Source of the DNA: a virus | IMG/VR virus record: IMGVR_UViG_3300035698_020241 | Coordinates: 62,241 to 126,240 of that record | Length of the DNA: 64,000 nucleotides | Direction: 5' to 3' (one strand) | Part shown: positions 37,675 through 63,998 of the stretch, in pieces | How the letters are laid out: each line of letters begins with the position of its first letter | Position numbering within the stretch: position 1 is the stretch's first letter | Notes under the pieces: model-generated | What the model saw: the letters and a program-made list of their open reading frames with translations, nothing else | Told to the model about the DNA's origin: nothing | Databases searched by the model: none | Program-made: the position numbers and the translations under genes

Positions 37675-38319
37675 TTATATTGCTCTAATGTATTTGTATA
37701 ATTTTTTAATGAATTTTTTATATGTTGGATGGTTTGTTTCAAAAGAATCTTGATAATCTTTCATTATGTTTGATTCTCCACGATCTAATAACTCTATAGC
37801 AGCACCTTGAGCAAAAGCGTCCAGTTCCATAGGATCCGAAAGGTAAATGTCCTTATCAGCATTAGGATCAAATTCATCTGGACCAAAAGATTTTCCTCTG
37901 GAAACTATATTTTGAGTAACATGTATTAATTCATGTGCCAATATAGTTGTTAATTCTTTAAAGAATTCATTATTTTGTATTTTAAAAAAATTTTCTCTTT
38001 TACCAGGTTTAGTAAATCGTCTGAAATAAGAACTTGATCCTTGTTTAACTTTTATAACTATTGGAAGATGAGGATTATCAAATGTAAATGCTGATGTTAT
38101 ATGTCTTCCTAATGATAACGCTCCTCTTTTATCAAATGAAAAATATAAATTATCATTTTTGAAAGCCGCATTGAGTGTCTTTATTAATGCTGTATCGGAA
38201 ATCTGCCAACCATTTTTTTCAAACACTCTACCTATCTCACCAAGGCGTTTATTCACCATTCTTATTGCGTTTTTTATAGTTGGTTTTGTTATCTCGTTTA
38301 TATATTGTTTAAATCTCAT
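37675..38319 (-). CDS. Zincin metallopeptidase-like head-tagged protein 1
   Basis: MRFKQYINE start; LAHELIH...PMELDAFA. Confidence 0.75.
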   Translation of the reverse strand: MRFKQYINEITKPTIKNAIRMVNKRLGEIGRVFEKNGWQISDTALIKTLNAAFKNDNLYFSFDKRGALSLGRHITSAFTFDNPHLPIVIKVKQGSSSYFRRFTKPGKRENFFKIQNNEFFKELTTILAHELIHVTQNIVSRGKSFGPDEFDPNADKDIYLSDPMELDAFAQGAAIELLDRGESNIMKDYQDSFETNHPTYKKFIKKLYKYIRAI

Positions 38320-38963
38320 TTCAATTTCTCCACATACTTTATTACTTTCTTTATAAATCTATTCTTTGCTTTCATATCTTTAACTAAGGTGAACGCATTT
38401 AAAAGATTATCAAATGTTTTTGATACTCCAAATCTTTTCATTTCTACGGCTGCCATTTGTGCAAATGCTTCCATTTCTACTGGATCTTTAAGATAGTTTA
38501 TAAATTCATACTTAGATGATTCTGGTGACATTTCAAATGATTTACCTTTAGATGCTTTAAATTGTCTTTTGTGTAATAATTCATGTGATATGGCATCCAA
38601 AAGATTTCTGAAAAACTCATTTTTATCTATATCATAAAATATTTGTTGTCTTTTAGGCTTAGCAAATTGTTTAAATGCTTTACCTACACCAGGAGATACT
38701 ATAATCATTATTAATAAACCTTCAGCGGCTATATTACCACCTTCAATATATTTACTATGCCTATCTTTACCTTTACCCAAAATGAACAGTATACCATCTT
38801 TCTTGAACATACTGGTCAACATAGATACTATAGCATTATCATTCATTATCCAATTATTTTTATTAAGTATACGAAACATTTCAGCCATATGACTTTCTAT
38901 CATCTTCTTAGTTTTACTAACAGTTGGTTTTGTTATCTCATTTATATATTGTTTAAACCTCAT
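38316..38963 (-). CDS. Zincin metallopeptidase-like head-tagged protein 2
   Basis: MRFKQYINE start; ISHELLH...PVEMEAFA. Confidence 0.75.
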   Translation of the reverse strand: MRFKQYINEITKPTVSKTKKMIESHMAEMFRILNKNNWIMNDNAIVSMLTSMFKKDGILFILGKGKDRHSKYIEGGNIAAEGLLIMIIVSPGVGKAFKQFAKPKRQQIFYDIDKNEFFRNLLDAISHELLHKRQFKASKGKSFEMSPESSKYEFINYLKDPVEMEAFAQMAAVEMKRFGVSKTFDNLLNAFTLVKDMKAKNRFIKKVIKYVEKLK

Positions 38964-38965
38964 TA

Positions 38966-39634
38966 TTAATCCTTTTTAGCATATTTGAAAAAATTAGATA
39001 TTCTTTTCTTAACAACTCTATCATGGCTTGAGTATTGGTAAAGTTTTTTTATGAAGACCTTTCTCATTTTTTGATTGCCTTTCAATATTTTAAGGACTTC
39101 CCTTAATCTATTATACTTACCATTCTTTAAATCTAGATATATAGTATGAGCCCAAGCCTCTGTTTCGTTTGGATCGGAGAAATATCTAATATTTAATAAC
39201 CAGTCTGGAGCATCTGGGTCGTCTTCTGTTCCTTTCTCTTTTTTATCATCATCATCAGGAAATTTTTCCCATTGTTTTCTATGTATCAACTCATGAGAGA
39301 TTATATCAGTCAAATCTTTAATAAAAACTCTTATACTAAACTTCTTATCCAACATCTTTGATGTTAATACTATTTCAATTTCATCTTGAAGTGATTGTCC
39401 AAAGCATACATATGTTGAATACGGCACAACGCATTCCTTATCTTTTCCGGTATGTGTGAATCCTATTTTATCATTTTTAAATATATTATACAAAGCTTTT
39501 GTTACTTGATCCATATCCTTTGCTTGTCTTATAGCTTTGGACATTTTACCTTTTTTCTGGCTCAACATATTCTTTACATGTTTAAGTGGTGATCCTGTTA
39601 TTTCAGTTATAACATATGTTTCAAGTCTACTCAT
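38966..39634 (-). CDS. Zincin metallopeptidase-like protein 3
   Basis: ISHELIH...PNETEAWA. Confidence 0.75.
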   Translation of the reverse strand: MSRLETYVITEITGSPLKHVKNMLSQKKGKMSKAIRQAKDMDQVTKALYNIFKNDKIGFTHTGKDKECVVPYSTYVCFGQSLQDEIEIVLTSKMLDKKFSIRVFIKDLTDIISHELIHRKQWEKFPDDDDKKEKGTEDDPDAPDWLLNIRYFSDPNETEAWAHTIYLDLKNGKYNRLREVLKILKGNQKMRKVFIKKLYQYSSHDRVVKKRISNFFKYAKKD

Positions 39635-39663
39635 TATTAATCCCTTTTATATTTTACTATTGA

Positions 39664-39710
39664 TATTTATACAAAAAATCACTACTTAAACTATTTACAA
39701 AGCATAAATA
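39664..39710. promoter_or_regulatory. Divergent T4-type late promoters
   Basis: TATAAATA on - (39664-39671) and CATAAATA on + (39703-39710). Confidence 0.55.
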
Positions 39711-39713
39711 ATA

Positions 39714-40340
39714 ATGTATAATAGGAGTGAATGTATAGGAGGATTGATGAACTTTTCATTAAAAGATATACTTAATAGTTTCAATAAAGTCACAGAAAAG
39801 GAAAACGAATTTACAATAGAAATACCAACTATAATTCCTATAGTTGATGAAAATTTAAGAGACCTGGATTCTAAAATACCAGGAGCTCCAAATTTTAGGT
39901 ATAAAGAAGTTGTAAAATCAGATACGGCCTTGAGACTTGGTATTGAAAATATTCCCAACGAGAAGCAATGGCAGTGTATAGAAAAGACCGCTAAACTTAT
40001 AGTCCAACCTGTTAGAGAGAAATTCGGAGGTATCAAGATAACATCTGGATTTAGAAGTGTTCAATTATGTATTGAAATAGGTAGTTCCCGCACATCAAAC
40101 CACACCAGAGGCCAAGCAATAGATTTTGAGCCTGTAAACCCTAAAATAAAACTGTTTGATATATTAGAATGGATTCACAATAACTTGAAATATAGGGAGC
40201 TTATAGCGGAATTCCTACCCTCAGGGTGGATACATTGTGCCTATAGAGAAGGAGACAATAGTAGAATTTTGAAATTGAAAGATAATAACCATCATTATAA
40301 GAGGGTTAACTTGGAGTATATAAGAAAAATATACGGATAA
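39714..40340 (+). CDS. Peptidase M15A-family endolysin
   Basis: ITSGFRS...SNHTRGQAIDF...WIHCAY. Confidence 0.85.
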   Translation: MYNRSECIGGLMNFSLKDILNSFNKVTEKENEFTIEIPTIIPIVDENLRDLDSKIPGAPNFRYKEVVKSDTALRLGIENIPNEKQWQCIEKTAKLIVQPVREKFGGIKITSGFRSVQLCIEIGSSRTSNHTRGQAIDFEPVNPKIKLFDILEWIHNNLKYRELIAEFLPSGWIHCAYREGDNSRILKLKDNNHHYKRVNLEYIRKIYG

Positions 40341-40356
40341 TATAAGGGAGGACGTA

Positions 40357-40599
40357 ATGGATAAGAAATTTAAAGATGCGGCAAAGAAAAAGTTTATAGA
40401 GAATATACTTAGTGTTAAGGTATGGGTAATTTTTATTTTACTAATCATATCAACATTAGCATTGTTTCATGGAATGTTAGCAGGAGATGTATGGGCTGGT
40501 CTAAACGGCGGTGTTATTTCAACCGTGTTTGCACTAAGAGAAGGATTTAAAGTTGCTAAGGTAAGATCAGAAGATGATACCGAAAATATGATGCCATAA
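40357..40599 (+). CDS. Holin-like small membrane protein
   Basis: Two hydrophobic helices; follows the endolysin. Confidence 0.55.
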   Translation: MDKKFKDAAKKKFIENILSVKVWVIFILLIISTLALFHGMLAGDVWAGLNGGVISTVFALREGFKVAKVRSEDDTENMMP

Positions 40600-40603
40600 G
40601 GAG

Positions 40604-40954
40604 GTGGATGTTATGATGAATACAGGAGTAATGATATTTCTTAGTTGTGGAGGCTTGGCTGGTCTTGCTTTTCTATTTACCAAATTTATGGGTAAAGGAA
40701 AAAAGTCAGATATAATGTCTGCTGTACATAAAGTCAATCAAAAGAACACACTAAATGAAATCAATGAGATTAATAAGAAACAAAACGTAGTGAAGGTAGA
40801 AATAAAGAAGGGTGAAAAGGTGGCCGAAGAAACAAAAACCAGAATCAAAAAGATTCAAAATAAGGCCGCTGAGGATATAAAAGAAGTGTTGAGTGAAGAT
40901 AAAGCGGTTGCTGATACACTGAACGATTTTAACGATGGTATGGAGGACTGGTAA
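40604..40954 (+). CDS. Inner-membrane spanin-like protein
   Basis: N-terminal TM segment plus coiled coil. Confidence 0.5.
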   Translation: MDVMMNTGVMIFLSCGGLAGLAFLFTKFMGKGKKSDIMSAVHKVNQKNTLNEINEINKKQNVVKVEIKKGEKVAEETKTRIKKIQNKAAEDIKEVLSEDKAVADTLNDFNDGMEDW

Positions 40955-41474
40955 GATGAAAAAATATGTAATAATGTTTATGATGATGTTGATAATGTTA
41001 ACAGGTTGCTATTCTGGTAAAGCATTCAAACCAGCAGGAGTAGATGTATATAATCCAAAGGCTCTAACAGAGTATGTTTATGACTTCTCAAAAGATGAGA
41101 AACCTCAAAAACTTATACCAATTTTCTTAGATGCTAATTTTGAAGAATGTACTGCGAATGAAGCAAGATATTTAGCTTTTGATGGTAAAGAGTTTAGCAA
41201 GATCAAACATCTACAAAAAATTGCTAAATACTATAAGGATCAAGTTGGTGAACATGTGGTTCTTATAAACAATTATATAAAGATCGCAAACTCCGAAAGA
41301 GAATATACAAAACTTGAAAATCAAAAACTTATTAAGTATCGTGAATTATGGATACAATCAGAAGAAGCATATAGACAAGAAAAATGGTGGCATAAAATTG
41401 ATAACTGGGTTAATAGAATATCAAGTTGTATAATGGGTGCCGGACTTGTTTATGTAGTTGTAATAGCTTTATAG
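40935..41474 (+). CDS. Lipoprotein (outer-membrane spanin-like)
   Basis: Signal peptide with lipobox LTGC; follows the i-spanin candidate. Confidence 0.55.
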   Translation: MVWRTGKMKKYVIMFMMMLIMLTGCYSGKAFKPAGVDVYNPKALTEYVYDFSKDEKPQKLIPIFLDANFEECTANEARYLAFDGKEFSKIKHLQKIAKYYKDQVGEHVVLINNYIKIANSEREYTKLENQKLIKYRELWIQSEEAYRQEKWWHKIDNWVNRISSCIMGAGLVYVVVIAL

Positions 41475-41481
41475 GAGAAAT

Positions 41482-41826
41482 ATGGAACAACAAATAATGA
41501 CAATTCTTACCGCTGTAACACCTGCTATGTATTGGATGTTCGCCAAAGTTGTTGTGGCGTTCTTTTTAGTAAAAATATTAAATGATATTCTAACTAATGG
41601 CACAGCATGGTTTATGTTCAAGAGTAATAAGAAATTAAGTCCTGGTGTTAAAGTACAAGTAAATGGAGATATAGGAATTATAACAGATTATGATTGGAAT
41701 TTTATTCATATAGATACTGAAAATGGTGATGAAATGTTAGTTCCTATAGCAAGATGGAAAATTCTAACATGGAAAGTAAAAAATCTTAAAAAGGAACTAT
41801 ACAGAGGGAATAAAGATGAAATTTAG
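41482..41826 (+). CDS. MscS beta-domain-like membrane protein
   Basis: TM helix then PGVKVQVNGDIGIITDYDW..IHI.TENG..MLVP. Confidence 0.55.
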   Translation: MEQQIMTILTAVTPAMYWMFAKVVVAFFLVKILNDILTNGTAWFMFKSNKKLSPGVKVQVNGDIGIITDYDWNFIHIDTENGDEMLVPIARWKILTWKVKNLKKELYRGNKDEI

Positions 41827-42109
41827 AAAATATATAAGTGAAGAAAGTCCTTCTAAGATGGTATCAATAAAGGATATTATTAAAAAGGTTAAATCACATA
41901 AAGGGAAATTTATTGCATATGCCGCTGGTTTTGGAATGTTTAATGGAAATGGTGAAATGCCGATAGATAAAAAAAGATTACTAAAAAGATTAGAAAGTAG
42001 TAATAAGAGTTCATTTTTAGAACTACATATTAATGGTAAAATATTAAGAATAGGATATGCTTTATCGTTCTTAAATAGTAAAAATTTTGATAAGTTCTTT
42101 CCTAAATAA
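41816..42109 (+). CDS. Head-tagged hypothetical protein
   Basis: MKFRKYISE start. Confidence 0.65.
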   Translation: MKFRKYISEESPSKMVSIKDIIKKVKSHKGKFIAYAAGFGMFNGNGEMPIDKKRLLKRLESSNKSSFLELHINGKILRIGYALSFLNSKNFDKFFPK

Positions 42110-42126
42110 TAAATCAGAGGTATAAT

Positions 42127-42594
42127 ATGAAATTTGGAAAATATATGAACATCTGTGAAAGTAGTAAAGAATTCATAATGGATGTTTTAACAATAGATGA
42201 TCCTATTAATAAGGATTATATTGAGGATGAAGATAATAAAAAAGAGGCTGAAAAGAATCTAAGAGAATTAAGGAAAGCTATAAGATTTCAAAAGAAAGAT
42301 ATTAAGTCTTGGGAAATGAAACGATTCTCGGAAGATAATGTTGAAGCCGCTGAGGCAATTCTTGATGATCTTCAAGTATCCTTAAAGAAATGGGAGGAAT
42401 CATTAGTGGCTCCTCCACCTGAACCAGTTAAAGAACCTGACGAAGAACCTAAACCAGAACAACCTATTCCTGGTGAAGAACCAAAGGATAAACCCGAAGA
42501 AAAACCAAAAGATAAAGAAGATAAACCAAAAGATGATGGTAAACCGGAAGAGGAAGAGGAAGAAAGAGGAGCAGGACTAGTAAATGAAATTTAG
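42127..42594 (+). CDS. Head-tagged acidic, Pro-rich protein
   Basis: MKFGKYMNICE start; PEEKPKD repeats. Confidence 0.7.
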   Translation: MKFGKYMNICESSKEFIMDVLTIDDPINKDYIEDEDNKKEAEKNLRELRKAIRFQKKDIKSWEMKRFSEDNVEAAEAILDDLQVSLKKWEESLVAPPPEPVKEPDEEPKPEQPIPGEEPKDKPEEKPKDKEDKPKDDGKPEEEEEERGAGLVNEI

Positions 42595-43432
42595 TGATTA
42601 CATAGTTGAAAAGGATACAGAAAATCCTTTTTTGAATTCATGGTCTAAAATAAAAAAAGATTGTGGTCCGTTTCTCAAAGAGTTAAAGAGTTTAGGACTT
42701 AAAAAAGGATCTTTATTTTATAGAGGATCACAGACAAGTGTTGCTCACATTAAAAAAGTAGTTCCTAGAAAAGGTAGAAAACCTAAAGATACCCCAATAG
42801 AGATACACAAAATACTTGATGATGCCTTTAATAAAAAGTTTGGATGGCGTGCAAGAAGTAATGGTGTATTTGCTGTTTCTGATTATATGGACGCAAGTTC
42901 ATATGGACGCGCATATGTCTTCTTTCCTATAGGAAAATACAAATATGTATGGTCACCAAGAGTTGAAGATTTATATACCAAAGTTAGGGATGAAATAGGA
43001 TTTTCTTTAGATTCTGATAATAGAGAAGTTTGGGATGATTTATATGGACCAAATAATGCCAAAGATGGCGGTACATGGGTATATGATGGTAAAATACTAC
43101 ATTACTCTAACTTTTTTGATCATGCCAGGGATCTTGTAATTGAAGATATATTAAAAGGTGATGAAAGTAAATTTGATGAAGATTTGATGAAGTGGAAACC
43201 AGAGAAAAAATTTAAAGAATGGGTAAAAACGGCAAAGAATGATGAAATGAATGAGATAAAAGATGATATAGAAAAATTGATGCATTTTTATATTACCGAT
43301 AATATGAAAAAAGCCATAACAACACAATATGAAGTAATGTTTTCATGTGCATCCTACTATCTTGTACCTGCTACATGGAGATTTTTACTTGAAGACGCTG
43401 TATATAAAAACAAATTACCTAATATAGGATAA
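42584..43432 (+). CDS. Head-tagged protein, possible ADP-ribosyltransferase fold; paralog of 44855-45517
   Basis: MKFSDYIVE start; FYRG...GVFAVS...YEVMF (R-S-E-like). Confidence 0.55.
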   Translation: MKFSDYIVEKDTENPFLNSWSKIKKDCGPFLKELKSLGLKKGSLFYRGSQTSVAHIKKVVPRKGRKPKDTPIEIHKILDDAFNKKFGWRARSNGVFAVSDYMDASSYGRAYVFFPIGKYKYVWSPRVEDLYTKVRDEIGFSLDSDNREVWDDLYGPNNAKDGGTWVYDGKILHYSNFFDHARDLVIEDILKGDESKFDEDLMKWKPEKKFKEWVKTAKNDEMNEIKDDIEKLMHFYITDNMKKAITTQYEVMFSCASYYLVPATWRFLLEDAVYKNKLPNIG

Positions 43433-43434
43433 TA

Positions 43435-44139
43435 ATGAGACTTAAACAATATATAAATGAAGGTATAGAAGATAAAGGAATACTAAAGGCTGTATTTATA
43501 GTAGGCCATCCTGGTAGTGGCAAGAGTTATGTGTTATCAAAAATTAAATCAGGACAAATAGAACCAAGAGTTGTAAATACGGATAAGGTTTTTCCTTTAT
43601 ACTCTAAAGATGAATGGGATAAATGGGTAGATATAAAAACCAAAGTAAAAACAATTAATAAAAATCAGTTAGCAAATTATATAAATTCTATGTTACCATT
43701 GGCTGTTGATGGTACAGGCACAGAACCAAGTGTTATATTAAGAAGAGTTGGTATACTTGAATCATTTGGATATGATGTTGGAATGGTATTTATTAACACT
43801 TCTCTTGAAACCGCACTTGAAAGGGCTGGAAAAAGAGATAGACCTGTAGATCCAGACTTTATCAAAAGAGTATATAAAAGAATACAAGATGCAAAACAAT
43901 TCTATCGTAGTAAATTTAGTGATTGGCAGGAGATACAAAATGATAAAGGAGAACTTACAGAAAAGGTAATTATTGATGCTTTTAAACATATGACATCATT
44001 CTATAATTCTCCAATGGTAAATCCTGTTGGTAAAGAGATTATACAAAAGATGAAAGAAAATAAGTGGAAATATTTAAGTCCTAATATAAAGGATATAAAA
44101 GAAATACAGAATATGATGAGTGCATGGTATAGAATGTAA
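43435..44139 (+). CDS. Head-tagged P-loop kinase (zeta-toxin/AAA_33-like)
   Basis: MRLKQYINE start; GHPGSGKS; VDGTG; GMVFINTSLETALER. Confidence 0.8.
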   Translation: MRLKQYINEGIEDKGILKAVFIVGHPGSGKSYVLSKIKSGQIEPRVVNTDKVFPLYSKDEWDKWVDIKTKVKTINKNQLANYINSMLPLAVDGTGTEPSVILRRVGILESFGYDVGMVFINTSLETALERAGKRDRPVDPDFIKRVYKRIQDAKQFYRSKFSDWQEIQNDKGELTEKVIIDAFKHMTSFYNSPMVNPVGKEIIQKMKENKWKYLSPNIKDIKEIQNMMSAWYRM

Positions 44140-44638
44140 AGGAGATAAAATGTTTGAGATTTTTTGTGATATGGACGGAGTGTTATGTGATTTATGTAAA
44201 GGTGCTGTCAAAATACATCCTAATATAAATGAGATTTATGAACAGAGTCATAGTGATGCATGGATATTACTTTTAACAAAAGGTGTAAAATTCTGGAGAG
44301 ATTTAGAATGGAATCCAGGTGGTAAAGAACTTTGGAGTTATATTGTTAAATATAACCCAAGAATACTTTCTGCTGGAGCTAAGAATTTTCCCACAACAAT
44401 TCCTGATGAAGGTAAAAGACAATGGTTACGAAAAAATGTTGGTGAGAATTTTGCCACTACAGCGATCATTGTTAATGGTGCTATATTTAAACAAAGATAT
44501 TCTGGTAAAAACAAAATACTTATTGATGATGTTATAAGAAATATTAATCAGTGGGAAGAAAAAGGTGGTATAGGAATACATCATACCAATACAAGAAAAA
44601 CACTGGAGATTTTATATGGACATATTAAAGAAAATTAA
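44120..44638 (+). CDS. HAD-family 5'(3')-deoxyribonucleotidase-like protein
   Basis: FCDMDGVLCD...ILSA...K...ILIDD. Confidence 0.85.
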   Translation: MHGIECKGDKMFEIFCDMDGVLCDLCKGAVKIHPNINEIYEQSHSDAWILLLTKGVKFWRDLEWNPGGKELWSYIVKYNPRILSAGAKNFPTTIPDEGKRQWLRKNVGENFATTAIIVNGAIFKQRYSGKNKILIDDVIRNINQWEEKGGIGIHHTNTRKTLEILYGHIKEN

Positions 44639-44855
44639 TAACCTCTTAGTAGAAAAGAGCACTCTTTTCAAAAGAAATTTTAAGAAGGTAGGACCTGCTT
44701 GGATTGAAAACAAAATGAGTAAAGTCGTAAAAATAAAAAAGATTGGAGATATATGGGAAGGCTATCATAAAGGAAAACATGTTCTTAATTATGATAGTGA
44801 TGATTATGTTTTATATTCAAATATGTCCATGATACAATTAGAGGACCTTAAATAA
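44616..44855 (+). CDS. Hypothetical protein
   Basis: MDILKKINNLLVE start. Confidence 0.6.
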   Translation: MDILKKINNLLVEKSTLFKRNFKKVGPAWIENKMSKVVKIKKIGDIWEGYHKGKHVLNYDSDDYVLYSNMSMIQLEDLK

Positions 44856-45517
44856 TGAAATTCAAAAAGTTTTTAAATGAGGCCACACTTGAAAAAATAG
44901 AAGAAGCTGCAAAAATGATTGCAAGAGATTGTAAGCCTTATCTTAAAGAGAATACTATTGTAAAAACTTCCGTAGGATATATTTTTAAAAGTAACGGAAC
45001 ACTTTATAGAGGATGTAAGGGTAAAGTTGATGTATTTAAAAAGATAACACCTCGTAGTAATAGAATACCTGTGGATATTACAGTAGATATACATAAAAGA
45101 CTTGATGTGTTATTTAAAGAAAAGTTTGGATGGAAAGTTAGAAGTGAAGGTGTATTTACAACTGGAAGTAAATTTGTCGCTGGTTGTTATGGTGGTGATG
45201 ATGGTGGATATATTGTATTTCCTATAGGAAAATACAAATTTGTATGGAGTCCTAAAGTATATGATATGTGGGACACATTAAGATATACATATAATCTTAC
45301 TGCTGGTGAGTCAGGAGGTAAAAAGCAAAGTCTTTATACAATAGGACTCACAACTCATGAAAAAATTTTAAAGGATATTGTAAATTCATTTATAGATAAA
45401 AATTTAGAAAAAGGAATAGAATCAGGAAATGAAATAACATTAAAAGTAGGATCATATTATTTAGTTGAACATATTAATATGGGTGCAATTTTACAGGAAT
45501 TAGGTAAATTGATATGA
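44855..45517 (+). CDS. Head-tagged protein, paralog of 42584-43432
   Basis: MKFKKFLNE start; LYRG...FGWKVRSEGVF...FPIGKYKFVWSP. Confidence 0.7.
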   Translation: MKFKKFLNEATLEKIEEAAKMIARDCKPYLKENTIVKTSVGYIFKSNGTLYRGCKGKVDVFKKITPRSNRIPVDITVDIHKRLDVLFKEKFGWKVRSEGVFTTGSKFVAGCYGGDDGGYIVFPIGKYKFVWSPKVYDMWDTLRYTYNLTAGESGGKKQSLYTIGLTTHEKILKDIVNSFIDKNLEKGIESGNEITLKVGSYYLVEHINMGAILQELGKLI

Positions 45518-46923: not shown

Positions 46924-46934
46924 TAGGAGAAATA

Positions 46935-47135
46935 ATGAATACAGTAACAACTACATATACTAATAGTAAAGGAGTGTCAGGTAATGTAACAATAGTTGAT
47001 ATAAGCGTAAGCGGCAGAGATACTTATGTAACATATATTGATGCATCTGGAGATTTACAAAGGGATACATTAACAATGACACCAGCATCCGCAGGTTTCC
47101 CATTTCAAATAGGCTCTAGTGCCATAGCAACATAG
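46935..47135 (+). CDS. Small Thr/Ser-rich beta protein
   Basis: ORF with GGAG RBS. Confidence 0.55.
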   Translation: MNTVTTTYTNSKGVSGNVTIVDISVSGRDTYVTYIDASGDLQRDTLTMTPASAGFPFQIGSSAIAT

Positions 47136-47143
47136 GAGAATTT

Positions 47144-47425
47144 ATGAAATTAAAAAAATACTTAATAGAATCCAAGATAGCAGGATCAGAAAGGAAAAAG
47201 TTAATTGAAATTTTTAAGAGTAAACCAAAAAAGGCCACCTTTTACTTCAAAAACTTTGGTCCAATGGATATACGATCATCAAAAGGTGTTACGATTTTTA
47301 CATATGATACAGCTGAATATAATTTGACAATGGAATTAATTAATCTTGTGGATTCTTTAGATGAATTTGAATTTGAAACAAAAATTAAAGGTAATGAAAT
47401 AAAATTTCGGGTAATTCCAGTTTAG
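47144..47425 (+). CDS. Head-tagged hypothetical protein
   Basis: MKLKKYLIE start. Confidence 0.65.
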   Translation: MKLKKYLIESKIAGSERKKLIEIFKSKPKKATFYFKNFGPMDIRSSKGVTIFTYDTAEYNLTMELINLVDSLDEFEFETKIKGNEIKFRVIPV

Positions 47426-47466
47426 ATGAAAGGGGTTAAGCCCCTTTATTCTACAAATCTTCTCTC

Positions 47467-53834: not shown

Positions 53835-54040
53835 TGAGTAGACAAAAAGATATGGTATGTAGAAAGTGTGGAAAACAAGGAGCATATAGTAAAGAATATG
53901 ACTCTATGTTCTGCAGAAAGTGTAATACATAGTTACAAACCACCTGTAGTGCTGTGGATTGTTTATGGTGTCGTACCAGACCAGAAAGACCTATAGCTGA
54001 AATAGAAAATATGTTTGATAATTTATTAGAGGAGTTATAA
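53834..54040 (+). pseudogene. Tandem paralog of 53625-53834 with an in-frame TAG at 53930-53932
   Basis: MSRQKDMVCRKCG...FCRKCNT*LQTTC...RPERPIAEIE; the TAG aligns with Trp in the paralog. Confidence 0.75.
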
Positions 54041-54041
54041 T

Positions 54042-54722: not shown

Positions 54723-54836
54723 TATTATGAAAATTTTTAAAAAATTATTTACTATTAAATGTCCTAAATGTAAAGGAAGATTACATGCGGAATTTTTTGA
54801 CATACAATTTGACAAACTTGTATGGAAATGTAATAG

Positions 54837-55199
54837 TTGTGGAGGAGAATATATATGATAAGTGATAATGTTATGAAACTTAAAGAGTTTGGAGATTCTA
54901 TATATTATAGAGTTGGTTGTGATTGTATGGATAAAAGATGTGAGTTAACCATGGAACTAGAACTTGATGAAGATGATAAAATGATATATTTAAATCTATA
55001 TAAGGACTTAGTATGGGATGAATACTATAATAATGATAATAGATTTACAAGATTTTGGAGACGAATAAAATGTACATTAAGAATGTTATTTACAGGTCGT
55101 ATTGAACTTGAAAGTTGTCTTGTATTAAAAAATAATAATATGATGGCCCTCCGTGATGCAATTGATGAAGGTATATCAATAATGGAGGAAAAGAAATAG
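54837..55199 (+). CDS. Hypothetical protein
   Basis: ORF; YRVGCDC motif. Confidence 0.6.
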   Translation: MWRRIYMISDNVMKLKEFGDSIYYRVGCDCMDKRCELTMELELDEDDKMIYLNLYKDLVWDEYYNNDNRFTRFWRRIKCTLRMLFTGRIELESCLVLKNNNMMALRDAIDEGISIMEEKK

Positions 55200-56482: not shown

Positions 56483-56483
56483 T

Positions 56484-57590
56484 ATGAAAGCATTAAAAAA
56501 GAAGATCATTGGAGACTTTGATTTTCTACAAAAAATGACCATACCGGAGTATACACTATATGCAAAATGGGTGGAAATAAACAAAAAGAAATACACATCA
56601 ACTGAACAATCTAGACTTTGGGAAATAAAGAATAGTTTATGGTATCCAAATAAACCAGAGGACTATTTGAAAGTTCAACCAAAAGTGATTGTGGTTAAAA
56701 CTAAAGAGGACTCACAGACTTGGACACTATTGAGAACATTCATTTCAACCATGAAATGGAATCAAAATGTTGGAAGAATTATAAGATATACTATTATGGA
56801 TAAAAAAACCATGACATATCTTGGTGTAATTTCTCTTGCATCTGATTTTATATCATTAGGCCCCAGGGACTCTGAAATAGGATGGGATTATACTAACAGA
56901 ATAAAACAAAAGATGTTAGCTTATACAGCAATGGGTTCTTCAATAGTTCCCACACAACCATTAGGTTACAACTTTGTAGGTGGTAAATTGATATCATTAA
57001 TTGTTAGTTCTGATAAAGTTGTTGATCCATGGAATGAAAAATATAAAGAGAACTTGGCTGGTATTACAACCACAAGTCTTTATGGTGGATTCTCACAATA
57101 TAATAGATTGAAACATTGGAAGAAATGTGGTACTACTACAGGTAAGATACCAATGGAACCATCAGAGGATAGCTACTTAGCAATCAGAGAGTGGGTGAAA
57201 AAAACACATCCAAAAGATTTTTTGAAACTCACACAAAATAAGAATGGTAAAATACTATCAAGACCAAAGGCAAAGATGTTATCATTTGCTTATACAAAAC
57301 TACAAATAAAACCGCCTGTGAATAACGCCCCAAGAGGTGTATATTATTGTAACCTCAATACGAAAGGAAACGAGTTTTTAAGGAAAGACAGTGATGATAT
57401 GGGTGAGAGTTTATTTGATAACAAACTCCAAACATTGGTTGATTTGTGGAAAACAAAGTATGCTAAAAAACGGGTTGAGAACTTGTTAAAGACTGATAGA
57501 TATAATACTGATTCTTTATTCTATGATACTTTGATAGGTAAGAGCTGGGAAGAAACACGGGAAATGTATCTAGCTAAAGTAAAGAGTTAA
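56484..57590 (+). CDS. DUF4338/DruA-domain protein (copy 2)
   Basis: Same motifs; SSIVPTQPLGYNFVGGKL identical to copy 1. Confidence 0.7.
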   Translation: MKALKKKIIGDFDFLQKMTIPEYTLYAKWVEINKKKYTSTEQSRLWEIKNSLWYPNKPEDYLKVQPKVIVVKTKEDSQTWTLLRTFISTMKWNQNVGRIIRYTIMDKKTMTYLGVISLASDFISLGPRDSEIGWDYTNRIKQKMLAYTAMGSSIVPTQPLGYNFVGGKLISLIVSSDKVVDPWNEKYKENLAGITTTSLYGGFSQYNRLKHWKKCGTTTGKIPMEPSEDSYLAIREWVKKTHPKDFLKLTQNKNGKILSRPKAKMLSFAYTKLQIKPPVNNAPRGVYYCNLNTKGNEFLRKDSDDMGESLFDNKLQTLVDLWKTKYAKKRVENLLKTDRYNTDSLFYDTLIGKSWEETREMYLAKVKS

Positions 57591-57787
57591 TATTTACATG
57601 ACCCATTAACTATGTTATAATATATATTATGAAAGTTATAACAAAATGTAAAAAATGTGGTTCAATAATGAAGAAAGAAAATCTTAAATTTTCATCATAT
57701 GAAGGACCTTATAAATTTGCATTCTTTTGTCCAAATAACTGTGATTATAAAAAGAAAAAATAGAGGTGTATTAAAATTTTTAGAAAT

Positions 57788-59536
57788 GTGTTTTACCATA
57801 CGAAAAGAAGTCAGATTCATTTATGGGAAACGATCAACGGTGTTAATGATTATACCGTTATTGATTGGGTTCCATATGTGTTTATAAAAGCACCCGAATC
57901 TGATATACATACAATTGATGGAGTTCCAGTTATAAAAAGGGAATTCATTGATTATAGGGACTATTATGAGTTCTGTAAGTTCAATAACCATATGCTTGAA
58001 AATAAGGTCAAGCCTGAGATTCAATTTCTTGCTGAGAGGTATCATGGAATACCAGATGCGGATATGGAAGTACCTCAACTTAAAATATATACGATAGATA
58101 TTGAGATTAACTATAAGGATAAGTTTCCTGATCCTCTATTGGCAGAGGAACCTATATGTCTTATATCTATAAAAGATTATATAACAAAAAAGGTTGTAAC
58201 ATTTGGAGAAAAGGAATATAGTGGTAACAAAACCGACTATAATCATTATCCAAATGAAATAGAAATGATAAAACGATTTCTTACATTCATGCACAGGAAT
58301 CCACCAGATATAATAACTGGTTGGAATGTTCAAGGTTTTGATATGCCTTATATAATTAACCGTGTAAAAGTATTGTTTGGTGAAAAAACACAAGCTTATA
58401 ATTTTCTTTCCCCTATTAGAGTTGTAAGGACATGGATGTCCAAGAAAGAGAAAGTGATGAATGTTGATATAGGAGGAGTAACGGTACTCGACTATATGAA
58501 AATATATAAATGGTATACACCGAGAAATCTTGAGTCATATGGTTTAGGTTTTGTATCAAAGGTTGAGTTGAATAAAGGCAAACTTGATTACTCTGAATAT
58601 GAAGACCTTAGAGAGTTGTATATTAAAGATTGGGATAAGTATGTTGATTATAATGTAGATGATGTCCATAGAGTTGATGAACTTGAGGAGAAACTTGGTT
58701 ATATTCGCCTTATTCAATCACTATCACTTTTAACAAAAGTGTCTATGAAGTTCTATGATGGTATGACACACCTTATTGAGGGTGCCATGTTAACCCACTA
58801 TAGACGAAATAAATTATGTGCTCCTTATATGGCAGGCGGTGTTCAAGAAGGATTTCCAGCAGCATTTGTAAAAGAACCTCAAAAGGGTATGCATGAGTGG
58901 GTTTCAGAGGTTGATATTACATCTTCTTATCCATTCCATATTATAACACTGAATATGTCTGTAGAAACATATATTGGTCGTATAATGGGCCTGAAAGATT
59001 CAGAGATTATATATCATACAAAAAATAGAGAATTTCCAAAATTTGATATGTACAAGGAAGATGGACTTGCAAAGTTTAGAGATAGAAAATTGAAAAGTTT
59101 CAACATGGCATTAGATAGAGGTTTAATAGCAATTGCTCCTTGTGGTTCTGTTTTCTCAACTAAAGAACCAGGTGTATTGGCCGCAGTTGAAAAACAAATT
59201 TTCTCTAAGAGAAAAGAAGTGAAAGGTATGATGAAAGATATTAGGATTAATGAACTTCCTAATCTAACGAAAGATTCTCCAGAATGGCAAAGTAGAAAGG
59301 ATAGAGCAGATGAATTATTCTCCTTACAATGGGCAATCAAAATTCTATTAAATGCTATGTTCGGAATCCTTGCTGTACCTTATTCACGGTATTTTAATGT
59401 TAATATAGCAGAGGCTATTACATCATGTGGTAAGCATACCATTAAACAAGGAGAATATTTTATAAATCATTTACTTAATGATATAAATAAGGTTGGTGAG
59501 TTAAAAAATATTATCAAGGAGATAGAAAATAATTAA
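57788..59536 (+). CDS. Family B DNA polymerase, N-terminal part (exonuclease plus motifs A and B)
   Basis: DIE, GWNVQGFD, YNVDDV, DITSSYP, KILLNAMFG. Confidence 0.92.
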   Translation: MFYHTKRSQIHLWETINGVNDYTVIDWVPYVFIKAPESDIHTIDGVPVIKREFIDYRDYYEFCKFNNHMLENKVKPEIQFLAERYHGIPDADMEVPQLKIYTIDIEINYKDKFPDPLLAEEPICLISIKDYITKKVVTFGEKEYSGNKTDYNHYPNEIEMIKRFLTFMHRNPPDIITGWNVQGFDMPYIINRVKVLFGEKTQAYNFLSPIRVVRTWMSKKEKVMNVDIGGVTVLDYMKIYKWYTPRNLESYGLGFVSKVELNKGKLDYSEYEDLRELYIKDWDKYVDYNVDDVHRVDELEEKLGYIRLIQSLSLLTKVSMKFYDGMTHLIEGAMLTHYRRNKLCAPYMAGGVQEGFPAAFVKEPQKGMHEWVSEVDITSSYPFHIITLNMSVETYIGRIMGLKDSEIIYHTKNREFPKFDMYKEDGLAKFRDRKLKSFNMALDRGLIAIAPCGSVFSTKEPGVLAAVEKQIFSKRKEVKGMMKDIRINELPNLTKDSPEWQSRKDRADELFSLQWAIKILLNAMFGILAVPYSRYFNVNIAEAITSCGKHTIKQGEYFINHLLNDINKVGELKNIIKEIENN

Positions 59537-59556
59537 GAAGTTACCTATATTATATT

Positions 59557-60603
59557 ATGAAAAAATTAACATACGAATATGTAAAAGAACAAATTGAGAA
59601 GGAAGGTTATGAACTTTTATCTAAAGAATATAAAAATAGTAACACTAAATTAAAAGTTAAGTGTCCTAAAGACCATGAATATGAAGTAAGATATAATAAT
59701 TGGTATAATAAATCAAGATGTTCTATATGTTATGGAAATTCTAAAAAAACATTAGTCGAAGTTAAAGATAGTTTTTATAGAAAGGGTTTAATATTATTAG
59801 ATGATGTATATATAAACAGACAACAATTATTAAGTGTGAAATGTATAAAATGTGGTAACATTTTTAAATCATCTATATGGAAAATTAATAGAAATATGGA
59901 TTGTAAAAAATGCTCAAACATAAAATATACCGAATCTTTTGTTAAAGAAGAATTACTAAAATATAACTATATTTTAGTATCGCCGTATAGAAAAACAAGA
60001 GATAGTATTAAAATTAAATGTAATAAAGGACATATATATAACTCCACATTCTCTCAATTTATGAGAAAAAGTAGATGTTATATTTGTTCAGGTAATCATA
60101 AATTAAAATATTCTTATGTTAAGGAACAAATTGAAAATGTTGAAGGTTATGAACTTTTATCTAAAGAATATAAAAATAACGTAACTAAATTAAAGTTATT
60201 GTGTCCTAAAGACCATGTATGTAAAATATCATATAGTAATTTTTCAAAAGGAAGAAGATGTAAAAAATGTTATGATGGTAAAAATCACTCTAATCAAGAA
60301 AAAGAAATATTAAAAATTGTTGAAAACCTTTTACCTGATAAAAAAATTATTCCTAATGATAGGACACAAATTATAAATCCTAAAACTGGAAAGAATCTAG
60401 AATTAGATATATGGATTCCTGAATTAAATAAGGCAATTGAATTTAATGGCGAATACTGGCATTTAAACAGAAAGGATATAGATGAAATTAAAATAAATGA
60501 ATGTATTAAAAATAATATCAATTTATTAGTAATATGGGATTATGAATGGATAAAAAATAAAGAAAAATGTATTAAAAATATAAGGGAGTTTGTAAATGTC
60601 TAA
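59557..60603 (+). mobile_element. Free-standing endonuclease gene splitting the DNA polymerase
   Basis: CPKDH/CNKGH repeats plus ELDIWIP...AIEFNGEYWH; paralog of 9231-10091. Confidence 0.75.
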
Positions 60604-61471
60604 GGATTATGTTTGTTATATTGACACGGATAGTTGTTATATAGATTTAGGTAAATTTATACTTGATAATATAAAATATAAAGAAAAGTGGAATGATTTA
60701 AATGATGATTCAAAAATAGAATATATAATAAAAATATCCAAAATCATTGAGGATTATATAAATGAAAGTGTGTTTCATGAAGTTCAGCTTGGTGATTATA
60801 ATTCACAGGTACATGATTTTAAGATAGAATTTAAACGAGAAATTATAGCAAAAACAGCTTTATTTATTAAAAAGAAAAAATATGCCTATTGGGTAGTAAA
60901 TGAAGAAGGTGCTCCATGTGATGAATTAGTCGTTAAGGGCCTTGAGATAGTAAGATCAGATAGTTCGGAAGCTGTTAGATCACGATTAAAGAAAATAATG
61001 GAAATGATAATGAGAGGAACTTCCGATGATGAATTATTATTAAAAATTCAACAATATAAAAGGGAGTTGAAAAAGGTATATCCAGAAGAAATAGCAGCCA
61101 ACATCGGTGTAAACAATATTGATAAATACATAATTGATGGAAAATCCACTAAAGGCACACCTTGGCATGTAAAGGGTGTAGCAAATTATAGAATGTTATT
61201 AAAACATTTTAAGTTGGAAGATCAATATGAGGATATATATGAAGGTAATAAATGTAGAGTATTTTATGTTAAAAAGAATAGATTTGACATAGAGACAATA
61301 ACATTTACCAGATGGCCAAAAGAATTTGAGGAAGTTCTTGAGGTTGATTTTGAAACAATGATTGATAAGTTTTTTATAAAAAAGATAGGATTTTTATTAG
61401 ACCCTATGGGTAAAATGTCTTTACTCAAAAGTGGTCAAGCAGATAAACAATTAGGATTGTTTTTTAGTTAA
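60596..61471 (+). CDS. Family B DNA polymerase, C-terminal part (motif C, thumb)
   Basis: YIDTDS, KKKYA, KGLEIVRSD. Confidence 0.92.
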   Translation: MSKDYVCYIDTDSCYIDLGKFILDNIKYKEKWNDLNDDSKIEYIIKISKIIEDYINESVFHEVQLGDYNSQVHDFKIEFKREIIAKTALFIKKKKYAYWVVNEEGAPCDELVVKGLEIVRSDSSEAVRSRLKKIMEMIMRGTSDDELLLKIQQYKRELKKVYPEEIAANIGVNNIDKYIIDGKSTKGTPWHVKGVANYRMLLKHFKLEDQYEDIYEGNKCRVFYVKKNRFDIETITFTRWPKEFEEVLEVDFETMIDKFFIKKIGFLLDPMGKMSLLKSGQADKQLGLFFS

Positions 61472-61485
61472 GAAAGGATATTAAG

Positions 61486-61959
61486 ATGAAAGATTTAAAA
61501 ACTATTGAGGACATAAAGAAAGCAATGAAGGATATTATATCTTTTCATCTTTCTAATATAAAGAAAGCAGAAGCCTTAGAGTTAATTGATATCACTTATG
61601 ATTTTGGAATAGATGATGGTCAAGATGAAGGTGAAACAACTGGTTTCAAGAAAGGTTGTCTTGCCGGTGGTGATGGTAGTGGTTATGATGATGCCTACGA
61701 TGATGGTCGAAGTAGGGGTCACAGCGAAGGATATGCAGAAGGTCATAGGGATGGTGTTGGTGAAGGTAGTGATTTTTCATTTGAGTCAGGAAAAGATTCT
61801 GGTATTAAAATAGGATATTCTAATGGAGTTAAAGAAGGTCATGAGGTTGGATATAATGAAGGTCTTGAGATAGGATATAGAGAAGGTTATGAAACATCTG
61901 AGGAATTACATGAACATGATGAAGAACTTGGAGGAATAGAAGATGAGCAGATTGGTTGA
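61486..61959 (+). CDS. Acidic protein with GxxxG repeats
   Basis: GYAEGHRDG...GYNEG...GYREG repeats. Confidence 0.7.
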   Translation: MKDLKTIEDIKKAMKDIISFHLSNIKKAEALELIDITYDFGIDDGQDEGETTGFKKGCLAGGDGSGYDDAYDDGRSRGHSEGYAEGHRDGVGEGSDFSFESGKDSGIKIGYSNGVKEGHEVGYNEGLEIGYREGYETSEELHEHDEELGGIEDEQIG

Positions 61960-62464
61960 ATTGTTTAATACACTTTTCAGGATATATTTTATGACTCCTG
62001 CTATTATTATACTTACATGTATTGCTTGTTTTGTATCAACGTTTTTCTATGGTAATCATTTGGAAACCATTTACAGTACAAAAATAAATGCATGTAATAC
62101 TTATATTGATAAACAAACAAGTTCCATAAAAATTCTTATGAGTAATGATTTTTCAATGCCAGTAAAATTAACAGCTTATAATGCCGAAGAGTCGCAAACA
62201 GATTCTACACCAAATATAACAGCCAGTAATAGAAAGATTAGAAAGGGTTGGTGTGCTCTATCAAGAGATATTGAAAAAACGCTTAGTCTTAAATTCGGGG
62301 ATTTTATAATTGTAAGTATAGATGGACGATATTACGGTAAGTATGAATTCCAGGATAGAATGCATAAAAGGAAAACAAAACAAGTGGATTTATATATGGT
62401 TAAGAAGAAGGAAGCGTTGAAATTTGGTGTTAAGAAAGGTAGTATACAAATAAAAAGATATTAA
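61943..62464 (+). CDS. 3D-domain cell-wall hydrolase-like protein with membrane anchor
   Basis: LTAYN...TD.TP.ITAS...ALSRD...FGD...QDRM...VDLYM. Confidence 0.75.
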   Translation: MSRLVELFNTLFRIYFMTPAIIILTCIACFVSTFFYGNHLETIYSTKINACNTYIDKQTSSIKILMSNDFSMPVKLTAYNAEESQTDSTPNITASNRKIRKGWCALSRDIEKTLSLKFGDFIIVSIDGRYYGKYEFQDRMHKRKTKQVDLYMVKKKEALKFGVKKGSIQIKRY

Positions 62465-62892
62465 GATACATCTTTCGCAAAATCAATAGCCATCTGTCTT
62501 GATTGTTTATCATTCTTAATTGTGAATTCCCTGCCATTACTACCACAAGTATCCTTTGTTACTTTATCTCCAGGTTTAAATCCTGCTACAGCTCTATGTG
62601 ACCAACCGTACCATTTCCCGTCCGCCTCTGATCTACCAATAGAATGTGAACAATGATCAGGACTTCTTTTTTCACCTTTAATCAATAACCAATCCTGAAA
62701 TCTGACCTTTACTTTACCATCAGCATATCGTGGTAGATTTTTAAATGTTCTATCACTATGTTCTATGTCTGTTTTCACATATCTGGTTTTCTTGAAGTTT
62801 TTCATCCTGTTTGTTCTAGGATTCATCTTTCTTATTTTTTGTTTATCAGCCATCGGAACCTTATGAAGGTCTACGAATTTATCAAATTTCAT
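62461..62892 (-). CDS. Hypothetical protein
   Basis: MKFDKFVD start; WYGWSHRA motif. Confidence 0.7.
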   Translation of the reverse strand: MKFDKFVDLHKVPMADKQKIRKMNPRTNRMKNFKKTRYVKTDIEHSDRTFKNLPRYADGKVKVRFQDWLLIKGEKRSPDHCSHSIGRSEADGKWYGWSHRAVAGFKPGDKVTKDTCGSNGREFTIKNDKQSRQMAIDFAKDVS

Positions 62893-63086
62893 TTTACAGT
62901 TTTATCCTTTTCTAATTTTTTCTCTAAATATTTTATATGTTTTATGAGGTCTTGAAATACTGGCTTACATCTATAAGGTAACCATATATCAGCCGCAATT
63001 GAGGTTTGAGATAGAATCTCATAATATTTCACATCTTTCTTTGACATCTTTTTTGGGTTTAAAGGATTGAGATTCTTCATTTCCAT
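62889..63086 (-). CDS. Hypothetical protein
   Basis: Coupled ORF. Confidence 0.5.
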   Translation of the reverse strand: MEMKNLNPLNPKKMSKKDVKYYEILSQTSIAADIWLPYRCKPVFQDLIKHIKYLEKKLEKDKTVK

Positions 63087-63235
63087 CCTTGTGCATTTTA
63101 TTTATTAACCAATTATATCATCTAATGTTTGTACTAAATTATCTACATATATACCGACTTCTTTTAATTTTCTTTTCCATTGTAACTTTCTTACAGATCC
63201 TACTTCTACACTATAAAGATCATTTTTAAGTCTCA

Positions 63236-63445
63236 TTATTTTATCCTTTTAAGGTTTTTTATTCTTTTGAACATTGATAGTTTCATACTTAATTGTTTAC
63301 TATTCCGTGGCTGGTAAATTGTATACTCTACAAAGCCATCCTTAGTTATATTATTTACAGTATATGATGGATAAGTATCATTTACTTCGTAAGATTTTCC
63401 AACTTCAATTTTTACTTCATTTATATATTGTTTAAGTCTCATTAC
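63236..63445 (-). CDS. Head-tagged small protein
   Basis: MRLKQYINE start with an AGGAG RBS. Confidence 0.65.
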   Translation of the reverse strand, partial: VMRLKQYINEVKIEVGKSYEVNDTYPSYTVNNITKDGFVEYTIYQPRNSKQLSMKLSMFKRIKNLKRIK

Positions 63446-63452
63446 TATCTCC

Positions 63453-63998
63453 TTATTTTGGATGTCCAAAAATTCTTTCTTGTATAGTTATACTTGTACC
63501 GAATAATGTTCTTCTATACTCTCCATCTCCAACCCACTCAATATCACTACCAGTGGTACCTTTAATGATCTTTCTAACTTTTTCTTCATCTTTAACAATA
63601 GGAACACTTGAACTTACCAATATATCAGCAATTTTAAGACCAGCCTCTATAAACCAACCTTTCTTTTTTACAAGACTAATCAGTTTTTTCACTAATAATT
63701 TCTTTGCTAACGGTCCATTATCGGTTCCTAATGCTGTTATTTTATTACCAAACTTAGAATCCCAATAAGTTAAGAATGCATCAGGTAAATCATCTTTATC
63801 CACATCTATAAGCCATAAAGATTTATACTTCTTTTGAAAATGTTCTTTACTATTAGCATTGAAACCTAACTTCTTATATGTGTTTACATACATATCCTAC
63901 AATTTTTGTAATGTAGGTGTATCAATAGTAGATGTATCAAATGAAGACCATTTCTTCTTTGGCATGGTTATTTCATTTAAATATTTCTTAAATTTCAT
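63453..63998 (-). CDS. Head-tagged protein interrupted by an in-frame TAG at 63897-63899
   Basis: MKFKKYLNEITMPKKKWSSFDTSTIDTPTLQKL*DMYVNTY... continues in frame into the track ORF 63453-63893. Confidence 0.65.

Follow-up and report, generated by a model that had tools for sequence, protein, structure and literature searches.

A nine-residue N-terminus resembling the T4 capsid targeting sequence on diverse proteins of an uncultured T4-like phage

The capsid targeting sequence (CTS) of phage T4 is the textbook route for phage delivery of ready-made proteins. It was reportedly described on the T4 internal proteins by Mullaney and Black in 1996, and to our knowledge only a handful of natural CTS cargoes, chiefly anti-restriction proteins and Alt, have been recognized. 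Here we analyzed a short N-terminal peptide (hereafter, the tag) shared by proteins encoded in a 64,000-nucleotide stretch of viral DNA (the window), which corresponds to bases 62,241-126,240, the second half, of the 126,240-bp IMG/VR virus record IMGVR_UViG_3300035698_020241. From its sequence and that of its relatives, this nine-residue N-terminus is probably a T4-type capsid targeting sequence, which we consider its best explanation.

In T4, mutagenesis of the CTS assigned targeting to residues 4 and 7 and processing to residues 8 and 10 (PMC9026906). The sequence is removed from IPI, IPII, IPIII, and Alt by the prohead protease gp21 (PMC9026906; PMC3012670), and the internal proteins and Alt, which carry the same kind of tag, are retained in the head and injected (PMC3012670). 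Direct reading of the T4 record showed that ipII and ipIII begin MKTYQEFIAE/A (a slash here marks a cleavage site or the corresponding position), that the 19-residue leader of ipI ends ITE/A, that gp23 is cut after LTE65/A, and that gp24 begins MAKINELLRE/S. In the giant phages phiKZ, 201phi2-1, and SPN3US, the propeptides of inner body (ejection) proteins are cut by a gp21-related protease (PMC5694885). The system proposed below would resemble that of these giant phages in that a prohead protease related to that of T4 cuts many head-internal proteins after Glu and these proteins reach the host, whereas the giant phages differ in the cleavage motif (S/A/G-x-Glu), in having long propeptides with no shared short tag, and in not being T4-core phages.

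Occurrence of the tag and comparison with T4

The tag, M-[KR]-[FL]-x-x-Y-[IL]-x-E, was found at the start of 12 open reading frames (ORFs) of the window and of one further upstream in the record (MSRFNDYINE, 373 residues, L002:15597-16718, minus strand). Each N-terminus listed in the original prediction was located at an ORF start (Table 1), although one of them, MKFDKFVD, lacks the terminal Glu and is thus a doubtful member. The genome-wide motif scan suggested there bore out the shared tag: a loose form of the motif gave 14 matches in the six frames of the 126-kb record, compared with 2.4 +/- 1.7 expected from first-order Markov sequences, and 13 of the 14 lay within 15 codons of an upstream stop, that is, at ORF starts. 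A position matrix of ten 9-mers scored its training tags at 25.6-33.3 and all else at 15.4 or less; since those same ten tags served to build the matrix, this gap is in part circular. All 13 tags end in I/L-x-E (INE, ISE, IVE, LNE, LIE, ICE, or ITE). The motif was not equally frequent on replication genes; none of the recognized replication or nucleotide-metabolism proteins of the 126-kb record was tagged.

BLASTP comparison after removal of the tag grouped the 214-, 215-, and 222-residue proteins (family A) and the 282- and 220-residue proteins (family B), with the others remaining singletons. Approximately nine families therefore carry the tag, rather than 13 unrelated proteins; the description of the carriers as unrelated stands between these families and fails within the two sets of paralogues. 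The tagged proteins were more often basic than other products, with an isoelectric point (pI) above 8.5 in 11 of 12 tagged proteins and 86 of 171 other ORFs (p = 0.0045). In the AlphaFold2 models of families A and B, the only low-confidence or disordered segment was the tag, as would be expected of a flexible address peptide.

A degenerate DNA pattern for the strict tag retrieved 21 IMG/VR contigs, with every match at an ORF start and many contigs carrying tandem tagged ORFs. The consensus of the 203 canonical tags collected was M[RK][LF]xxY[LI]xE, followed by Ala in 51%. Among 115 homologues of the CCA-type enzyme encoded in the window (described below), positions 1, 3, 6, 7, 9, and 10 were conserved (entropy <=1.0 bit) and position 2 was R/K, whereas positions 4, 5, and 8 were free (entropy 2.5-2.75 bits). 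Glu9 was conserved in 99-100% and position 10 was Ala in 51-86% of homologues.

The 70 nucleotides 5' of the tagged ATGs were mutually dissimilar, several tagged genes overlapped their upstream neighbor, and the conserved tag residues were coded variously (AGA/AGG, TTT/TTC/CTT/CTA/TTA, AAT/AAC, and GAA/GAG). The unlike upstream DNA and the varying codons therefore indicate selection on the peptide and not on the DNA. These data bear on the alternative that the tag peptide is functionless and is the remnant of a recombination junction, or a favored translation start, copied among the genes of a hyperplastic region. Shuffling at conserved 5' ends is known for the internal-protein loci of T-even phages, and Lys- or Phe-rich starts are favored in AT-rich genomes; nevertheless, this explanation appears very improbable, since ribosome sites as well as upstream DNA differ among the tagged genes, several of which are translationally coupled, since amino-acid conservation is position-specific across more than 100 clusters of the CCA-type enzyme and approximately 47 of 64 family A representatives, and since each half of a split CCA-type gene acquired its own tag.

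Compared with the T4 CTS, the tag has the same layout of hydrophobic-x-x-aromatic-[IL]-x-Glu, often followed by Ala, on otherwise unrelated proteins, and its F/L3 and Y/F6 are spaced to [IL]-x-E as are Y4 and F7 of T4. Moreover, it ends at the type of protease site that the capsid protein also uses, and the mature proteins would be mostly basic. The gene neighborhoods are also alike. In T4, ipI, ipII, and ipIII flank a tRNA cluster and the lysozyme gene and lie outside the head gene cluster; here, similarly, a tRNA region comes before the tagged genes, whose operon also encodes an M15 endolysin and small membrane proteins. In contrast, the tag is one residue shorter and of other sequence (MRLKQYINE versus MKTYQEFIAE), at least 13 carriers are found in half a genome compared with approximately five in T4, and the cargo would consist mainly of enzymes that T4 is not known to package (CCA-type nucleotidyltransferase, P-loop kinase, and HExxH proteins). 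The T4 CTS was demonstrated by experiment, whereas the present tag is known from sequence alone and the phage's own protease is not in the record.

Apart from the N-terminal tags, MRLPKYAIELMISLLKD occurs twice in the record, at L002:10990 and 11808 on the minus strand (record 30990 and 31808). Both copies are internal to long ORFs, of 1012 and 265 residues, where they form a tag-like repeated segment away from the ORF start.

Head proteins and virion proteomes of relatives

The record has a G+C content of 31% and a completeness of 53% according to CheckV. Among its products are a T4-type family B DNA polymerase, DnaB-like and other helicases, primase, a gp32-like single-stranded DNA-binding protein, UvsX, a gp46-like SbcC, and ribonucleotide reductase; it also has 25 tRNA genes. 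Searches of the 126-kb record for gp21 (PF03420) and gp23 (PF07068) found neither, and no head gene was present. With replication genes present and head genes missing, the record is, as judged from its gene content, the half of an uncultured T4-like jumbo phage genome that holds the replication and accessory genes; because only this half, at 53% completeness, is available, the missing gp21 and gp23 are not evidence of absence. A megablast search of the tagged region against the 50,697 records of the GenBank phage collection gave no match.

We therefore turned to relatives bearing the tag. Peptidase_S77 (gp21) and gp23 were both present in three of the five longest tag-bearing contigs, the other two being fragments. 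The gp23 proteins of three relatives carry sites of the expected type before the conserved mature N-terminus, namely SINE/A (G002), MNE/T (G001), and LME/T (G005). The prohead protease ORF of G001 (L028:1378-3060, minus strand) is 560 residues long, compared with approximately 205 residues in G002 and G005; a large intein-like insert follows directly after GHPPC, and the Pfam match is in two pieces.

Further data came from the cultured Agrobacterium jumbo phage Atu_ph07, which encodes T4-type gp21 and gp23 (PMC6102473 Table S3). Family B is homologous to gp55-63 of this phage (tblastn, 30.6% identity over 85% of the query, E 3e-5). The members of the tandem array gp54-gp63 start with MRWEQLTE, MKWHQLTE, MRWHQLIE, MRLFQLLE, and similar sequences. 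The pattern M[KR]WxQLxE had 10 matches in the 490-kb Atu_ph07 genome (gp54-62 and gp408), compared with none for a reversed-pattern control, and looser variants were found in gp43 (MRLIDLLE), gp47, gp53 (MKWNDLNE), and gp63. The published virion proteome, obtained by electrospray ionization tandem mass spectrometry, includes gp43, gp47, gp53-63, and gp408, with 2-31 unique peptides and 12-57% coverage (PMC6102473 Table S5); we matched gene numbers to the proteome via protein masses. Within gp1-63, all 13 tagged proteins were in the virion and none of the 38 non-virion proteins was tagged (Fisher p = 5e-7), although most of the tagged proteins are paralogous and are therefore not 13 independent events. 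The Atu_ph07 tag, M[RK]WxQLxE, is of the same style as the present one and ends in L-x-Glu, and its carriers are found in virions; it differs in its length of eight residues, in having Trp and no Tyr, and in that most carriers belong to one paralogous family. The CCA enzyme of Atu_ph07 is untagged, has its GGxVRD motif at residue 24 (compared with residue 48 here), and is not in the virion list. The tag is not discussed in the Atu_ph07 paper (PMC6102473).

By analogy with T4, the tag would dock its carrier onto the prohead scaffolding core during head assembly, and a gp21-type prohead protease would remove the tag by cutting behind the Glu of its [IL]-x-E site. What is left, a mature protein that is mostly basic, would then remain in the head with the DNA and enter the host cell with it. 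Two other explanations are informed by the relatives. In the first, the tag sends proteins into the prohead, where they serve as core or scaffold accessories for assembly only and are degraded or expelled during maturation, like T4 gp22, gp67, and gp68, so that nothing functional is injected. T4 core proteins are likewise cut at [LI]-x-E and cleared (PMC5694885), a G002 protein in the gp67/68 position has a comparable start, MNIEKIYTKYLNE, and the acidic, low-complexity 155-residue protein of the window is scaffold-like. On the other hand, the carriers are mostly folded enzymes or basic proteins on which the tag was kept across hundreds of clusters, mature virions of Atu_ph07 contain the homologues at 12-46% sequence coverage, and the T4 internal proteins and Alt, with their tag of the same kind, stay in the head; a purely assembly-related role is therefore quite unlikely, although less so for the acidic 155-residue protein. 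The G002 protein in question (184 residues, L027:616-1170, plus strand) is encoded between portal and protease, its start reads MNIEKIYTKYLNE/S, and a tag-like KYLNE lies four residues further in.

In the second, a different phage or host system recognizes the shared N-terminus as a leader, and the likeness of this leader to the T4 signal is coincidental; the system could be a modifying enzyme, a chaperone, timed degradation, or a membrane route. Packaging in the present phage is argued by analogy, and part of the tagged operon may use an early-type promoter, both of which leave room for such a leader. Conversely, the invariant Glu after [IL]-x, with Ala next in half of the tags, is exactly the gp21 site type, and the Atu_ph07 virion contains homologues with a similar tag. 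Specific forms of this alternative also fared poorly: a leader linked to a radical-SAM enzyme was rejected, as PF04055 matched all 14 control genomes but nothing in the 126-kb record, and the tag is insufficiently hydrophobic for a secretion signal. We thus consider a leader of this type unlikely and retain capsid targeting as the working explanation.

Predicted identity of the tagged proteins

Pfam and NCBIfam searches returned nothing for families A and B or the small proteins, and profile searches of both families against PDB sequences gave nothing meaningful; their assignments were thus approached through conservation and structure. In family A, His127, Glu128, His131, and Glu163 were invariant among 52 aligned homologues (numbering of the 215-residue paralogue), which places a Glu 32 residues downstream of the HExxH motif, and HExxH was kept in 62 of 64 representatives. 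The AlphaFold2 model of this paralogue had a predicted local distance difference test (pLDDT) score of 92, with disorder limited to residues 1-7. Foldseek gave weak matches to SprT-type, PprI/IrrE, and putative zinc peptidase structures (E ~1, probability <=0.2), the Atlas neighbors belonged to M78 (template modeling score 0.37-0.42, normalized by query), and the list from the VIA wide fold search was uninformative, being dominated by the C-terminal helical bundle. The peptidases named in the original prediction thus find backing in the invariant HExxH...E but little in fold matches, and we regard family A as candidate HExxH metallopeptidases or hydrolases. Approximately 47 of the 64 representatives were tagged, and most of the others resemble start-codon miscalls.

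The AlphaFold2 model of family B paralogue 1 had a pLDDT of 85, with residues 1-11 disordered. Its closest structural neighbor was a protein of unknown function (Z 5.6), followed by ADP-ribosyltransferases (ARTs; Z 4.6-2.6); the neighbors with this fold comprised a PE-like toxin, Arr, cholix, exotoxin A, diphtheria toxin, DarT, and PARPs. The best Foldseek match was Arr at E 0.14. Arg47 (within YRG), Arg65, Arg91, and Glu250 were invariant. The model suggests that family B possibly has an ART-like fold; for the possible ADP-ribosyltransferases of the original prediction, ART folds filled the top structural ranks, but only at weak scores, and no Pfam or PDB sequence match was found. A tag-like start was present in 14 of 14 family B homologues, one of which begins MKSFQEFIVE, near the T4 sequence.

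Domain matches agreed at the family level with the predicted kinase and CCA enzyme. The 234-residue protein matched AAA_33, Zeta_toxin, and the phrog_505 polynucleotide kinase, and PSTK weakly; the G001 orthologue of this P-loop kinase is tagged too (MKFKQYINE). The CCA-type enzyme matched the PolyA_pol head domain (PF01743, E 2.5e-33) and an RNA-binding domain (PF12627, E 9.5e-11) and contains the GGxVRD motif as GGSVRD at residue 48. The best NCBIfam match was NF009814, at 256 bits, under the cut-off of 290, and PcnB-type models matched as well. Since the score falls below the curated equivalog cut-off, membership of the nucleotidyltransferase family is secure, while CCA-adding or poly(A) polymerase activity is not assigned.

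Among the homologues of the CCA-type enzyme, the tag was found on 112 of the closest 120 (the best 120 of 7,312 matches), which were 60-81% identical to it; each of these represents a separate 90% cluster, and all are metagenomic. A tblastn search against the 50,697 GenBank phage records found no close homologue, with matches of at most 44% identity, or at most 36% where two-thirds or more of the query was covered, and with the alignments among the matches listed beginning at residue 16 or later and hence without the tag. In a relative (contig L021:3185-4761, plus strand), the CCA-type gene is split at residue 268 into a head-domain ORF and an HD-domain ORF with a one-base overlap. The N-terminal half is 64% identical and retains the tag; the C-terminal half is 56% identical and has a new 48-residue N-terminus starting with its own tag, MRLMNFINE. 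A separate tag on each half suggests that the tag is an autonomous, modular unit.

Gene organization, transcription, and proposed cargo

The tagged genes of the window lie mainly in a minus-strand set and a plus-strand operon that diverge from a common control region (Table 1). The plus-strand operon comprises 15 tightly coupled genes with gaps of at most 17 nucleotides and includes the endolysin cassette and most tagged genes. The M15 endolysin (PF08291, 197 residues) has its true start at 39747, as indicated by a ribosome-binding site, the mechanical ORF start at 39714 falling within the -10 box; with the four small membrane or lipoprotein-like proteins it likely constitutes a lysis cassette. 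Untagged members amid the tagged genes are an NT5C-like 5'-nucleotidase of the HAD family (44150-44638, plus strand), called from a weak Pfam match below the cut-off, and ORFs of 79 and 66 residues, and the operon therefore mixes tagged and untagged products.

Table 1. Tagged genes of the window and their immediate surroundings. A slash marks the putative cleavage position.
Feature	Coordinates	Strand	N-terminus and characteristics
Family A paralogue 1, 214 aa	37675..38319	-	MRFKQYINE/ITKPT; HELIH at residue 129; mature pI 9.5
Family A paralogue 2, 215 aa	38316..38963	-	MRFKQYINE/ITKPT; HELLH at residue 127
Family A paralogue 3, 222 aa	38966..39634	-	Variant MSRLETYVITE/ITG; HELIH at residue 114; first gene of three-gene minus-strand set
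Divergent control region, 112 nt	39635..39746		Separates the two tagged gene sets; promoter-like boxes
Untagged operon head: M15 endolysin and four small membrane/lipoprotein-like proteins	39747..41826	+	Context, not cargo
97-aa protein	41816..42109	+	MKFRKYISE/E; mature 10 kDa, pI 10.2; without known family
155-aa protein	42127..42594	+	Variant MKFGKYMNICE/S; sole acidic carrier (pI 4.5); Pro/Glu/Lys-rich low-complexity tail
Family B paralogue 1, 282 aa (phrog_11975)	42584..43432	+	MKFSDYIVE/K
P-loop kinase, 234 aa	43435..44139	+	MRLKQYINE/G; Walker A GHPGSGKS
Family B paralogue 2, 220 aa	44855..45517	+	MKFKKFLNE/A
Class II nucleotidyltransferase with HD domain, 469 aa	45514..46923	+	MRLTQYINE/E; CCA-adding / poly(A) polymerase type
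93-aa protein	47144..47425	+	MKLKKYLIE/S; mature 9.7 kDa, pI 9.2; last gene of plus-strand operon
Doubtful member, 143-aa Tad6-like (anti-Thoeris) protein	62461..62892	-	MKFDKFVD; without [IL]-x-Glu site
68-aa protein	63236..63442	-	MRLKQYINE/V; mature 7 kDa, pI 9.9; size like T4 small internal proteins
Tagged gene with in-frame TAG	63453..63998	-	33 codons from MKFKKYLNE/ITMP, TAG, then 146-aa ORF in the same frame

Two genes near the end of the window differ from the remainder. For the doubtful member, the Pfam match was Tad6 (PF25188, E 9.8e-21), which inhibits type I Thoeris. In the gene with the in-frame TAG, the predicted tag does stand at an ORF start, but only 33 codons precede the stop. 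An intact tagged homologue of 179 residues (L005:2818-3354), 41% identical along the full length, has Trp (TGG) where the TAG aligns. Translation could restart at an ATG two codons past the TAG to give an untagged 146-residue form, and no suppressor tRNA was found among the 25 tRNA genes of the record. Elsewhere in the window, an HNH homing-endonuclease gene (59557-60603) separates the two parts of the T4-type DNA polymerase gene (57788-61471, plus strand).

Next, we focused on transcription, where the original prediction, which had called the tagged proteins late and placed some of them downstream of late promoters, was weakest. On its minus strand, the control region contains one T4-type late box with the exact sequence TATAAATA (39664-39671), 29-30 nucleotides before the family A operon start at 39634; this is the sole exact TATAAATA upstream of a tagged gene in the window. 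The surrounding TGTATAAATAT is identical to the sequence upstream of the G001 scaffold gene, and TATAAATA precedes the gp22 scaffold gene in both G001 and G005. On the plus strand, CATAAATA (39703-39710) lies 36 nucleotides before the endolysin start, but this strand also carries a strong sigma-70-like promoter, TTTACA-17-TATAAT (39694-39722; 11 of 12 consensus matches), and late expression of the tagged proteins is not established. In the record and relatives combined, TATAAATA occurred within 80 nucleotides upstream of 10 of 53 tagged ORFs (19%) and of 42 of 582 untagged ORFs (7%; p = 0.007). Genome-wide, exact TATAAATA was not enriched (32 sites compared with approximately 50 expected from composition, by our own estimate), and a late promoter therefore cannot be argued from the count alone. 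Late transcription of part of the tagged set is plausible from these sequences.

Several points weigh against capsid targeting as the function of the tag. The gp21, gp23, and scaffold proteins of this phage lie outside the record, and the case for it is built from relatives. The capsid sites of these relatives were placed by alignment with T4 using a movable 7-residue gap, on which the exact register depends. The support from Atu_ph07 derives mostly from one paralogous family with a somewhat different, 8-residue tag, and N-terminal processing is not reported in that paper (PMC6102473); packaging, cleavage, and injection in the present phage would follow by analogy. Moreover, a CCA-type enzyme and a kinase would be unusual virion cargo, neither being listed by the virion proteomes in the literature searched. 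Finally, a strong sigma-70-like promoter stands upstream of the operon with most tagged genes, where the only late box has one mismatch, and expression of this operon may therefore not be late. With these points considered, a T4-type capsid-targeting tag for packaged and injected proteins, as originally predicted, still appears the best-supported reading by analogy, given the T4 layout, the gp21 and gp23 sites of relatives, and the Atu_ph07 proteome.

If so, the phage probably injects ready-made enzymes, including one of tRNA-repair type, along with its DNA. The cargo would be a pre-made tool kit acting before phage gene expression, composed of three HExxH hydrolases, two possible ART-fold proteins, a P-loop kinase, a CCA-adding-type enzyme, and small basic proteins. 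More tentatively, and with somewhat more doubt than confidence, we propose that a large clade of uncultured T4-like jumbo phages packs and injects a tRNA repair kit that could reverse the damage done to host or phage tRNAs by tRNA-targeting defenses before phage genes are expressed. This kit would consist of the CCA-adding-type nucleotidyltransferase with its HD domain and the Pnk/PSTK-like P-loop kinase, beside the HExxH hydrolases and ART-like enzymes.

The tag would thus be a variant of a known mechanism, distinguished by its enzyme-rich cargo and by the chain of evidence comprising a near-always tagged CCA-type enzyme, a split gene, and the fitting proteome of a cultured relative. If this is true, distant T4-like giant phages use the same mechanism for a cargo that is far larger and richer in enzymes, and pre-packaged tRNA-repair activity would represent a new kind of counter-defense timing. 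The tag may also serve as a packaging handle for T4-based delivery vectors. Additionally, this short tag would be a sequence-only predictor of virion cargo in metagenomes, which could place "hypothetical" phage proteins by the hundreds in an injected, first-minute arsenal.

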